NCBI GenBank assembly: GCA_951406725.2
Contig: OX597814.1
Coordinates: forward strand, 36,518,001-36,582,000
Direction of reading: 5' to 3'
DNA length: 64,000 nucleotides
Source: Octopus vulgaris
Taxonomy: Eukaryota
In this document: positions 7,791 through 57,962 of the stretch, in pieces
Layout: each line of letters begins with the position of its first letter
How positions within the stretch are numbered: position 1 is the first letter of the stretch
Position numbers and translations under genes: made by a program
The notes under the pieces: generated by a model
Seen by the model: the letters and a program-made list of their open reading frames with translations, nothing else
Told to the model about the DNA's origin: nothing
Databases searched by the model: none

Positions 7791-8203
7791 TACAAATAAG
7801 AAAATGTAGGAACAGATTCCTTTCAATCATCGACTTACAGATAATACCAATTCATATTATTTATTAACTACTTAAATAGTACTTATTTATTGATGTATAT
7901 TGTTTTATTCTGTTTTATTCTGTTGGATCTGGATGTTCCTATTTAAGTAGTTAATAAATAATATGAATTGGTATTATCTGTAAGTCGATGATTGAAAGGA
8001 ATCTGTTCCTCCATTTTCTTATTTGTATTATGATTTTGAGGTAAAATATTTTACCTTCGCCCGTCTAATACAATAAATGAATTAATTGCATTGCAATTAT
8101 AAACATTTATGTATTTGCCTTTTGGGTACTTCACTAGCAGTATATTGGATAACTGATATCCCATAGTGGGTTACACTCATAAACCATATCTCACTTTGTA
8201 CTT
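7791..8203. mobile_element. (TA)n-embedded element with 89-bp inverted arms (PLE-like terminus)
   Basis: 7791-7879 is the reverse complement of 7939-8027 with 1 mismatch; TA tracts on both sides. Confidence 0.7.
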
Positions 8204-8214
8204 ATATATATATA

Positions 8215-8492
8215 CTCTTTTACTCTTTTACTCTTTTACTTGTTTCAGTCATTTGACTGCAGCCATGCTGGAGTACCGCCTTTAATCGAGCAACTCGATC
8301 CCGGGACTTATTCTTTTGTAAGCCCAGTACTTATTCTATCGGTCTCTGTTGTCAGTCAATGCTAGGGGGACAAACACAAACATACATGCACACACACATA
8401 TATATATACATATATACGACAGGCTTCTTTCAGTTTCCGTCTACCAAATCCACTCACAAGGCTTTGGTCGGCCCGAGGCTATAGCAGAAGAC
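8215..8492 (-). mobile_element. SINE family A, partial and internally deleted
   Basis: Reverse complement of segments of 4950-5345. Confidence 0.85.
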
Positions 8493-9049
8493 AATTCAAA
8501 CATGGCCACACCTCAGTGGAGAGCAAGGTAGGCCATCTACAAGCCAAAAACGAGGAGCTGATTGAGAAAGGTCGGTGAATATTCATTGTAGACCAGTGTG
8601 CAACAATCCAAGAAATTGCTCATGGAAAAGAAATAAGCTTAGGATCAATGCACTCCATTTTAATGGAGTATTTATGCATGTTGAGAGCATTGGTGAAATT
8701 TGTCCCCAAGGTGGCAGCAGAGAAGCACAAGCAACTCCAAATGGAAATCATTCAAAATATGCTGGATGGTGCAAACCATGACCTAGACATGAAGATCATC
8801 ATCACTGGTGACGTGATGTGAGATTTTGGTCTCTGTTTGGTCATCTTGTATGAAAATAAAAATCCGATGAGTGAGCATTATAGGTTTGTATTCTAGGCAT
8901 AACAGGGAGGACTGACAAGGCCTACTGACATGAAAAATTTCAGTAGTGTGCAGGAAAGATGGACTCACCTCCCATCCAAAGATTTTTCATACCCAATATT
9001 AGTTTTGGCGGGAAAAATAAAGTTGCATACTTTTAGAATGCACTTTGTA
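8493..9049 (+). pseudogene. Mariner transposase relic with probable 3' TIR
   Basis: Manual translation across frameshifts: FKHGHTSVES..GRPST..IQEIAHGKEISLGSMHSIL..KFVPK..IITGD (WVPHEL-equivalent and first catalytic D motif); ends gcatacttttagaatgcactttgTA. Confidence 0.75.
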
Positions 9050-9352
9050 TCTATGTATGTATCTATCTATCTATCTATCTATCTATCTATCTATCTATCT
9101 ATCTATCTATCTATCTATCTATCAATCTATCTATCTATCTATCTATCGATCTATCTATCTACTTACCTTCTTATCTACTTATCTATCTATCTACTTATAT
9201 ACTTATCTACTTATCTATCTATCTATCTATATACCTATCTATCTATCTACCTATCCAGCACATCCGTCTATCTGTCTGTCTGTCTGTCTGTCTATCTATC
9301 TATCTATCTATCTATCTATCTATATATATATATATATATATATATATATATA
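9050..9352. repeat. (TATC)n/(TGTC)n/(TA)n compound microsatellite
   Basis: Read directly from the sequence. Confidence 0.95.
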
Positions 9353-54775: not shown

Positions 54776-56740
54776 CGCAGCATGTCGTAGGTTGAAGATA
54801 CTTGTCAGAACTCTGTCCACTGGCCTGATGGGATGGAAAGTTTCTTAAATCTGCTGTCATAAAATAAGTTCTGTGCTTTTGTGTTCTTCATGTTGTGTTT
54901 TATATAAACTCTTCTTTTCTTTGAAAAAGATCTTTTGATCGAAATGTCAAATACAAACAAAAAACAAAAAGCAAACGAACGTATATGTACGAATGTATAT
55001 ATACGTGTATCTGTATATATATATATATATATATATATATATATATATATATGTTCATATATAATTATCCGTATATATGGATGTATGTACGTATATATGT
55101 ATGTATGTATGTATGTATGTATGTATGTATGTATGTATGTATGTAGGTATCTATATATACACACACACATATGCTTCCTTAAACAGATGCTTATACATAT
55201 ACATACACACATGAATATATTTACATGTATGCATACATATACATATATGTGGGAGATGGGGTGGGTGTATATATAATGTTTACATGTATGCGTATATGTA
55301 TATATGTATATAAACACAAATATATATATTGATATACATATATACATATACATATGTATATATATATATGTATATGTATATATATATATATATATATATA
55401 TATATATATATATATGTAAATATATATATATTTATAAATATATATATATATGTATGCATATGTATATATATGTATATATGTATATATGTATATATGTATA
55501 TATATATATATATATATATATATATATATATATATATATATATATATATATATATATATATATACGTACGAGTATGTATAGGTGTGCATATATATGCAAA
55601 CATGAATTACTCTACACAGAAGTAGATTGTTAGTTTTATTGTTGTGCTGAGATTAATCTATGTTACTAATCTGAGTCTCGCAAATGTCATTGATAAGGCA
55701 ACCAAGTTCTGAGGTGAAAAAAAAAACAAAAACCAAAAGCTAAAAACACTGCATTCATAACCATGATGATAAGTGTGGGCATTCACTGAAATCGAAAATA
55801 AATTATCTAAATAAACAAAGAAACTAAGAGTAAAGAATAAATAGATAAAAAAGTAATGAAAGAGGAAAAGAAAAATAAATTGATAAAAAGATTAAAAGGA
55901 AAAAAATATATATATAATATACTCGTAAAATATATTTAAAAAAAAAAGGTGTAAGCATAAACAAATAGAAAATCGAAAAAAGAACAAATAAAAAGATAAC
56001 GCAACAGAGGCAGAACGTACCACACGTATATAGGACATTAGATATAGAAATGTTAAATATAACACATTCTAGAGGGTTTAATCAGACGTGTAAGTGTTAT
56101 ACATACATACATACATACACACACACACACACACATATATATATATGTATATATATATATATATATATATATATATATATGTATATATATATATATATAT
56201 ATATATATATATACATACATACATACATATATATATATACATGTATTTATCTATACATATGTATTTATACATACATATATATACATGCATATATATATAT
56301 ATATATATATATATATATATATATATATATATATATATATATATATATATATATATATATATATATATATACACACATATATATGATTACATGTTTATAT
56401 ATGTATACACACATATGTGTGAATGTGTAAGTTGAAATTAATAGCTCGGAAGACAAAGTGAGAACAATACGTAATTATTAGTCTGACGTTTGGTAAAAAA
56501 AAGGAGAAAATTAAAACCGTCTTTAACGTTTCGACTTTCAGCTTTTCTTCCGAAGGTCAGGCAGAGATAAAAGTTTCGCAACGACACGTGAGTATAATAG
56601 GAAGGTGCGCTTTAGTCCGGGATAAATCATATTGAAAGTGGCATGAGATTTGAATGATCAAGTCATACGTGCTAGAGTCCCAAGGAAGGTAACTGTGAGC
56701 GAGTGTGCATAATCCGGTATACATACACAAATACACAAAT

Positions 56741-57202
56741 AAGGCAGCGAGCTGGTAGAAACGTTAGCACGCCGGGCGAAATGCTTAGCAGTATTTCGTC
56801 TGCCGCTACGTTCTGAGTTCGAATTCCGCCGAGGTTGACTTTGCCTTTCATCCTTTCGGGGGGTCGATTAAATAAGTACCAGTTACGCACTGGAGTCGAT
56901 AGAATCGACTTAATCCGTTTGTCCCCTCTCTGTTTAACTCCTTGTGGGTAGTAAATAAATAGGTATACATACACAAAAGGCGGCGAACTGGCAGAAACAT
57001 TAGCACGCTGGGCGAAATGCTTAGCAGTATTTCGTCTGCCGCTACGTTCTGAGTTCAAATTCCGCCGAGGTTGACTTTGCCTTTCATCCTTTCGGGGTCG
57101 ATTAAATAAATACCAGTTACGCACTGGGGTCGATATAATCGACTTAATCCGTTTGTCTCTTCTGTGTTTAGCTCCTTGTGGGTAGTAAATAAATAGGTAT
57201 AC
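56741..57202 (+). mobile_element. Two tandem full-length SINE family B copies
   Basis: 56741-56966 and 56977-57202, each bounded by ggtatacatacacaaa. Confidence 0.9.
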
Positions 57203-57482
57203 ATACACAAATACAGCAAGTGTGTGTCTGTGCACGTCCTTGTACTCTTAATGTGTATATGTTTTTCTTCGAGTGTTCATGTGTGCATTGCAAACCTAGT
57301 ATTTTCGAAGATATCGTTACAAAGTGTAAGGATGTCTATGTTAATGTGTGGTCTTGGTTTGTTTGTGTTTGTGTGTTTTATTTCGTGTATATGATTCGTG
57401 CATATATGAGGGTATATATGTGATGGGGTAGTGTGGTGTTATGGATGTGATTACTTTCTCTCTCTCTCCTCCTTTCTTGCCT

Positions 57483-57645
57483 TCTTTCTTTCTTTCTTTC
57501 TTTCTTTCTTTCTTTCTTTCTTTCTTTCTTTCTTTCTTTCTTTCTTTCTTTCTTTCTTTCTTTCTTTCTTTCTTTCTTTCTTTCTTTCTTTCTTTCTCTC
57601 TCTCTCTCTCTCTCTCTCTCTCTCTGTATATATATATATATATAT
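57483..57645. repeat. (TTTC)n(TC)n(TA)n compound microsatellite
   Basis: Read directly from the sequence. Confidence 0.95.
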
Positions 57646-57962
57646 TACGGAGATGTACTTGCATAGTAAGTGACCTGATCTGAGATCGTGTGCTGGAACG
57701 AAAACAATTGCAGCGTGGAAGGTGTTTATAAGCCATTTAAGAAACCCACAAAAACCGTTAGATTCACTTCAATATTTAAATTTAATTTGTCAAAATATTT
57801 TCGACCGCAACATGTTCACTGATAAATTTGTCAGTGAACATGTCGCGGTCTCAAAGCGGCGAAAATATTTTGACAAATTAAATTTAGATGTTGAAGTGAA
57901 TCTAAAGGATTTTGTGTGTTTCTTAAATGGGTTATGAACACCTTCCACGCTGCAATTGTTTT
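57646..57962. mobile_element. (TA)n-embedded PLE-like terminus forming a spacerless palindrome
   Basis: 57701-57826 is the diverged reverse complement of 57827-57962, with a 10-bp deletion in the left arm. Confidence 0.8.
57827..57877 (+). ncRNA. Hammerhead-fold RNA with G3-C8 swapped core
   Basis: tttgtca-GTGAACA-t-gtcgc(ggtctcaaa)gcggc-GAAA-ATATT-T-tgacaaa: 7-bp stem I, 5-bp stem II, palindromic AATATT stem III. Confidence 0.65.

Follow-up and report, generated by a model that had tools for sequence, protein, structure and literature searches.

Hammerhead-bearing and fold-back elements at (TA)n tracts in Octopus vulgaris: probable non-coding ends of Penelope-like elements

A 64,000-nt stretch of the Octopus vulgaris genome (contig OX597814.1, positions 36,518,001 to 36,582,000; hereafter the window) contains a series of short elements that carry hammerhead ribozyme motifs, inverted arms or both, and that border (TA)n tracts. 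These elements probably represent the non-coding 3′ ends of several families of Penelope-like elements (PLEs), together with short non-autonomous derivatives of such families, inserted into TA tracts that were likely already present. The type of hammerhead, the unequal head-to-head arms and the TA-like loose ends of one family (E6) at other loci support the PLE origin and the targeting of TA; both this origin and the preference for TA are likely, and both are already known biology. Since a ribozyme–PLE–(TA)n system has been published, including for Octopus (PMC8557442; statements about cited papers refer here and below to the consulted sections of each), the finding mainly adds uncatalogued families. 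The one unusual point is the E6 family with its G3-C8 core pair, which is worth an assay; the rest is mostly known biology.

The window has a high AT content (GC 0.28-0.42) and many microsatellites (124 rows of tandem repeats). A first-pass annotation of the same DNA had described seven stretches, here named E1 to E6 (including E5a and E5b), as mutually unrelated elements lying between or against TA arrays; all seven are present, with coordinates that agree within 1-2 nt, and each of them borders (TA)n on one side or both. Masked self-comparison with blastn confirmed that E1-E6 have no similarity to one another, nor to the rest of the window, and E1-E5 were single-copy in the window. Two further elements, E7 and E8, were added in this analysis.

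E1, 7793-8202, plus strand: head-to-head pair, arms 7793-7879 and 7939-8025, with a 177-nt unpaired extension to (TA)6
E2, 29090-29335, plus strand: 246-nt non-coding element with TA arrays on both sides and a complete type I hammerhead at 29269-29319
E3, 32468-32744, minus strand: head-to-head pair, arms 32585-32663 and 32667-32744, with a 117-nt extension to (TA)18
E4, 44407-44622, minus strand: 216-nt element with short TA tracts on both sides and a degenerate hammerhead at 44585-44498
E5a, 53243-53837, no strand given: 274-nt arms flanking (TA)16, tail-to-tail
E5b, 53880-54484, minus strand: 605-nt non-coding element between (TA)21 and (TA)16, with a complete type I hammerhead at 54029-53936
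E6, 57646-57962, no strand given: two head-to-head arms, 57701-57822 and 57831-57962; belongs to a family of about 200 nt that is very abundant
E6 hammerhead, 57825-57879, plus strand: core GTGAACA (G3-C8), 9-bp stem I, palindromic AATATT stem III, U17
E7, 14713-15222, both strands: inverted pair with one minimal hammerhead on each strand (14841 minus, 15094 plus), not at TA
E8, 22031-22398, no strand given: older fold-back (116/141 identical) that ends at a TA tract

Hammerhead motifs

The hammerhead structure scan was blind to TA and left positions 3 and 8 of the core free to form any Watson-Crick pair. It found four complete type I motifs in the window, where 60 block shuffles of the same sequence gave 0.083 on average; the four are the motifs of E2, E5b, E6 and the E7 pair, the last of which the first-pass annotation had missed. 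The E2 motif (CTGAAGA T..T GAA ACAG..CTGT A) is predicted to cut after 29313, about 22 nt before the 3′ end of the element; in E5b, whose stem III is the palindrome ACACGTGT, the cut is expected after 53946, which lies 66 nt away from the TA tract; and the E6 motif has a fold z score of -3.8. A type I hammerhead near the 3′ end, as in PLEs, is present in E2, E5b and E6. In E4, CTGAGGA T is intact and stem I has 6 bp, but G12 and U16.1 are altered (judged by eye). A degenerate hammerhead-like motif also lies at the left edge of E5a (53231-53273, plus strand), with the arm boundary inside it; in this motif as in E4, CTGANGA, stem II and stem I are visible by eye and core changes are present. The description of the elements as carrying inverted arms, hammerheads or both stands for four of the seven as regards arms and for three as regards complete hammerheads, E4 having a degenerate motif only.

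The blind scan found no complete hammerhead in E1, E3, E5a or E8, and no ribozyme is recognisable in E8. E1 has a 3′ half only (GAAA, a 5-bp stem III and UH at 7994-8011), the CUGANGA box being missing; in E3 the start of each arm falls within a hammerhead-like stem II, both arms have T-GAA ACAATTGT A, and the 5′ core is missing. The arms of E1 can form the three helices of a hammerhead in their proper order (7955-8020), and the 7-nt junction reads AATTGGT where CUGANGA would be expected; E1 is possibly a dead or altered ribozyme family.

Rfam hammerhead models gave no match to any of the three complete motifs of E2, E5b and E6 (three sub-ranges searched), and among the matches listed for the whole window (150 of 352) there were only microRNA and other small-RNA models, below gathering scores; the abundant ribozyme family of E6 thus escapes standard scans for CUGANGA or with Rfam. 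When the motifs were folded as monomers, the hammerhead shape was the minimum only for E6 and E4. Computed energies for intermolecular pairing of the palindromic stem III were -12.3 (E5b), -6.2 (E6), -5.7 (E7) and -8.4 kcal/mol (E3), values that predict that these stems can pair between two molecules, like those of dimer-active minimal hammerheads. Hammerheads of this kind would cut as dimers or with the help of protein. Fold-back copies are likely dead, since their antisense arm would sequester the ribozyme.

Fold-back arms and (TA)n tracts

The two arms are identical at 86 of 87 positions in E1, 77 of 78 in E3, 271 of 274 in E5a and 114 of 122, plus one deletion, in E6. In E1, E3 and E6 the short arm ends at TA and the other arm continues for 177, 117 and 55 nt, respectively, to the opposite tract; in E6 this continuation is the tail of the minus copy (57646-57700), which runs into (TA)9. 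A head-to-head pair with one longer arm is the published insertion form of PLEs, which supports a PLE origin of E1, E3 and E6: an inverted 5′-truncated copy next to the 5′ end is found in all three and at other E6 loci. E8 has the same class of layout. A common repeat resembling a short interspersed nuclear element (SINE), at 22927-23129 and adjoining (TA)16, is also folded back on itself; fold-backs in the window are not confined to hammerhead elements.

Some of these structures (E5a above all, and perhaps E1, E3 and E8) might instead be duplications made at the DNA level by snap-back at (TA)n hairpins, DNA transposons of the fold-back type or artefacts of assembly, an origin that we regard as unlikely. 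It would suit the tail-to-tail arrangement of E5a, centred on (TA)16 with nearly identical arms and a 35-nt slippage duplication on one side, as well as the folding back of an ordinary SINE-like repeat and the want of a complete hammerhead in E1, E3, E5a and E8. However, the arms are unequal in extent, the left end of E5a has no TA duplication, unlike miniature inverted-repeat transposable elements (MITEs), and E1 and E3 share the layout of E6 (short arm at TA, long arm extended, GAAA half facing outward), which is recurrent for E6 at other loci. A MITE reading was rejected: inverted repeats at both termini plus a target duplication, the mark of MITEs and fold-back DNA transposons, are not seen, the arms of E1, E3 and E6 ending 55-177 nt short of one end and E5a having no TA at its left end. 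E5a may still have arisen by local snap-back or by an assembly error.

For the PLE reading, the structures are observed; the enzymes, the order of steps and the activity of the ribozyme are inferred from the literature. Autonomous PLEs elsewhere in the genome would supply the enzymes for insertion; by analogy with published PLE work, a GIY-YIG endonuclease would nick AT-rich or (TA)n DNA, the reverse transcriptase would start at either of two internal sites on the RNA (giving the long tail end or the short end) and would stop early, and a second, inverted and truncated copy would complete the insertion.

Tracts of (TA)5 or more lie on both flanks of five of the seven elements (E1, E2, E3, E4 and E5b); E6 is bordered by (TA)9 on the left but by no more than about three units on the right, and E5a has (TA)16 at its centre, (TA)21 on the right and no TA on the left. 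The first-pass list was picked by its TA borders, and therefore the list itself is no proof of enrichment. Two of the four hammerheads found by the blind scan have a downstream TA tract within 100 nt (background 0.10, P=0.052); with E6 counted via its partner arm, three of four loci have TA within about 150 nt on either side (background 0.24, P=0.044), and the same count at 250 nt gives P=0.11. The enrichment at TA that the first-pass annotation had proposed to check is thus weak within the window.

The same annotation had suggested that the elements may help to seed or expand TA tracts, and this is unsupported. After merging, there are 58 TA tracts. A candidate element adjoins 13 of them (in 6 cases together with another dispersed repeat), dispersed repeats of other kinds alone adjoin 10, and 35 have neither as a neighbour, so that 45 have no candidate element, and neither have six of the seven tracts of at least 100 nt; the census could overlook decayed elements. 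Because the TA tracts here do not need the elements, pre-existing tracts serving as landing sites are the simpler reading. It is very improbable that the elements create or lengthen the tracts, for example by untemplated TA addition or by slippage at insertion. Such a process would account for TA at both ends of five elements and at the ends of E6 copies at other loci, and PLE reverse transcriptases are related to telomerase (PMC8557442); yet most tracts, long ones included, have no candidate neighbour, the other dispersed repeats that border 6 of the 13 candidate-touching tracts are a possible source of TA, and the right end of E6 has only about three TA units. TA seeding, if true at empty sites, would tie retroelements to the birth of microsatellites; nothing here points that way.

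The E6 family

Of 24 public sequencing runs from five organisms, all available as contigs, four (X1, X2, X12 and X16; organisms A, B and E, with one run of organism A, X16, guessed to be RNA) were compared with the window over 57620-58500. All four contain contigs that match this interval (15679, 13768, 8450 and 1568), and in the DNA runs the summed depth on E6, which is not a copy number, is mostly 1-4.6 million, versus about 500-10000 on the right flank. We infer that the E6 family is very abundant in three organisms; E6 is thus a dispersed multi-copy family, as expected of a PLE.

The majority letters of the family at 57841 and 57859 differ from those of the window copy, which puts a G in the spacer and makes the pairing of stem II complete. 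G3-C8 is the majority state of the core in all four runs; loose ends at 57803 carry it directly in 31, 25 and 1 contigs of X1, X12 and X16, respectively, and X2 has no alternative letter at 57834 or 57839 among the best 40 of 232 rows. Tentatively, E6 may be a non-autonomous element of about 200 nt, present at very high copy in several related species, whose natural G3-C8 pair and perfect stem II form an unreported core kept by selection for cleavage, even though cutting is dispensable for PLE insertion in vitro. A double change that preserves the 3-8 pair, and that has become fixed in a family represented by thousands of variant contigs from three organisms, bears on whether PLE hammerheads are selected for cutting, a question that is still open in the field. 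Hammerhead surveys have been made with descriptors permitting 3-8 swaps, and the absence of G3-C8 from print is therefore uncertain. No report of a natural G3-C8 core was found in the literature covered, which is incomplete and includes PMC6155905. A natural core swap is described for U3-A8 (PMC4209133; PMC3088659); G3-C8 appears only as a laboratory variant in PMC3884650, and the engineered C3G/G8C change partly restores cleavage in a protein-assisted hammerhead (PMC11167929).

E6 has two 3′ ends about 55 nt apart, of which the short one recurs at other loci. At this short end (57702 and 57704), the junctions continue into alternating TA in at least five rows (60, 45, 59, 61 and 42 contigs; agreement about 0.5). 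Joints from 57733, 57737, 57740, 57754 and 57772 to 57827 are consistent with other head-to-head copies of E6 with variable truncation; because the joints fall at varied points, the fold-back of E6 is a habit of the family and not an artefact. Loose ends at 57827 (194, 193, 148 and 19 contigs) have about 16 letters in common and then diverge in an AT-rich, noise-like manner, which suggests a unit of about 200 nt with a fixed 5′ end. One metagenome scan for E6 returned 0 loci. The adjoining sequence (57963-58500) is a separate, low-copy repeat that starts exactly at the E6 boundary, and the contigs of its other copies begin at 57963-57964; copies of this repeat free of E6 could be used as empty-site controls.

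A fixed 5′ end and a short unit, as suggested by the loose ends at 57827, would also fit a retrozyme-like element of about 200 nt that moves via self-cleaved circular RNA and borrows only the enzymes of PLEs. Non-LTR (long terminal repeat) animal retrozymes are short and non-coding, have type I hammerheads and are thought to be moved by PLEs (PMC7229834; bioRxiv 10.64898/2026.07.22.740005); those of invertebrates measure about 170-400 nt (PMC7229834), and a derivation of retrozymes from PLEs has been argued (bioRxiv 10.64898/2026.07.22.740005). They are, however, defined by head-to-tail tandems and circular RNA, and the E6 motif is minimal, unlike that of canonical retrozymes. None of the elements is repeated directly in the window, so there is no partial head-to-tail tandem (pseudo-LTR), and there is no tandem of E6 among the best 15 of 142 joint rows; a tandem retrozyme was rejected on these grounds, and retrozyme-like movement of E6 is doubtful.

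Comparison with known systems

The Hydra clade (Craig et al. 2021; PMC8557442) consists of hammerhead-bearing, (TA)n-targeting PLEs with inverted 5′-truncated copies; a tail of 30-40 bp and a microsatellite bias are also described in that study. The window elements resemble it in having a type I hammerhead at most about 100 nt from the 3′ end, T..TGAA around stem II together with an AC..GT stem III (E2, E3 and E4; stem III only in E5b), an inverted 5′-truncated copy, described in one family of the clade, and insertion into (TA)n, as at the window junctions and other E6 loci. File S1 of that study records (TA)n as the preferred site in 26 of the 27 families of the clade, Hydra-1_Obim being one of them, and in three Octopus Naiads. 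Among the 26 clade motifs of its File S2, stem III starts with AC and the core pair is C3-G8 in all, and T..TGAA surrounds stem II in 14; this layout fits E2 and E5b, and partly E3 and E4, but not E6 or E1, and the AA..TT stem III and G3-C8 pair of E6 occur in 0 of 26. The protein marks of the clade are the RWK and DKT motifs, a CxCX5C linker and an endonuclease with no CCHH. The Octopus Naiads (PMC8557442) share the (TA)n preference, inverted truncated copies and tails, and with no canonical hammerhead they could fit E1 or E5a, but the 3′ ends of three consensus sequences, compared by eye, do not resemble the window elements.

The minimal, dimeric hammerheads described for metazoan PLEs (Cervera and De la Pena 2014; PMC4209133) have the same extra base between positions 9 and 10.1 and a palindromic stem III, and they too occur as many unrelated families per genome, mostly in solo copies, with opposite-strand pairs 100-700 bp apart; unlike E6, however, their core swap is not G3-C8, and the consulted sections mention neither G3-C8 nor TA targeting. 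Poseidon PAc of Anolis (Frangieh et al. 2024; PMC11167929) is similar in its AT-rich cleavage and in its two internal starts of reverse transcription, which give the tail; it differs in preferring ATT over (TA)n, in a tail of 30-40 nt (about 55 nt in E6) and in having G3-C8 only as a laboratory mutant. The repeat library of PMC13282606, which reports 31 recently active Penelope-like families in Octopus vulgaris, may hold the families of the window.

Several observations weigh against assigning these elements to (TA)n-targeting PLEs. No PLE reverse transcriptase or GIY-YIG domain, both of which the first-pass annotation had proposed to look for, was detected by Pfam in the 142 of 170 filtered frames that were scanned, and no PLE remnant was evident by eye in the frames of six elements. 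With no PLE reading frame in the window, membership in a clade is unproven; the missing frame is expected of truncated or non-autonomous copies, and we classify the stretches as PLE-type ends and assign them to no named autonomous family. The consensus set of PMC8557442, as consulted, contains none of six window motifs, though line breaks there could mask a match. The motifs of E4 and E5a are not above background: a relaxed-core scan, also proposed earlier, missed both even with two core mismatches allowed, its 17 matches (6.7 in shuffles) being swamped by TA artefacts. The 3′ half motif (GAAA, stem III, UH) occurs 47 times in the window and 35 times in shuffles, or about 0.02 per arm, and since it is common in both, the halves of E1 and E3 are suggestive only as hammerhead remnants. 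E5a is oriented tail-to-tail, opposite to the PLE insertion form, and the one-sided extensions of E1, E3 and E6 exceed the published tail of 30-40 nt. For the E7 hammerheads, which surround a tRNA-like SINE head and (AAT)n, the nearest TA tract on the downstream side is 1.4 and 5.1 kb away. Evidence for a dispersed family comes from E6 only; its long end (57646) falls in a stretch skipped by the run comparison, its loose ends at 57701 and 57707 (at least three rows) are A/T-rich and show no clear alternation, and a further 1045 rows of loose-end junctions exist beyond those listed. The earlier proposal that multiple Penelope-like lineages target (TA)n is accordingly upheld in part, by the hammerhead type, the unequal head-to-head arms and the TA-like ends of E6 elsewhere; enrichment in the window is weak, and no PLE protein was found in the frames scanned.

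The Pfam matches in the window belong to other elements. Pieces of non-LTR reverse transcriptase lie at 60583-61362 (best solved relatives R2), 63039-63527 and 25864-26337 (weak RVT_1), and a remnant of a Tc1-type transposase lies at 10805-11251 (HTH and HTH_Tnp_Tc3_2 matches). Broken pieces of non-LTR retrotransposon with R2/R4-like reverse transcriptase (the first two of these matches) lie in 58907-63999, beside (AAT)n arrays at 62322-62408 and 62619-62662. Judged by eye, 2508-3017 is a fragment of ORF2 (open reading frame 2) of a long interspersed nuclear element, and the weak match at 25864-26337 is another such fragment. The stretch 56731-57211 is a tandem dimer of a 234-nt SINE-like unit, with 93% matches.

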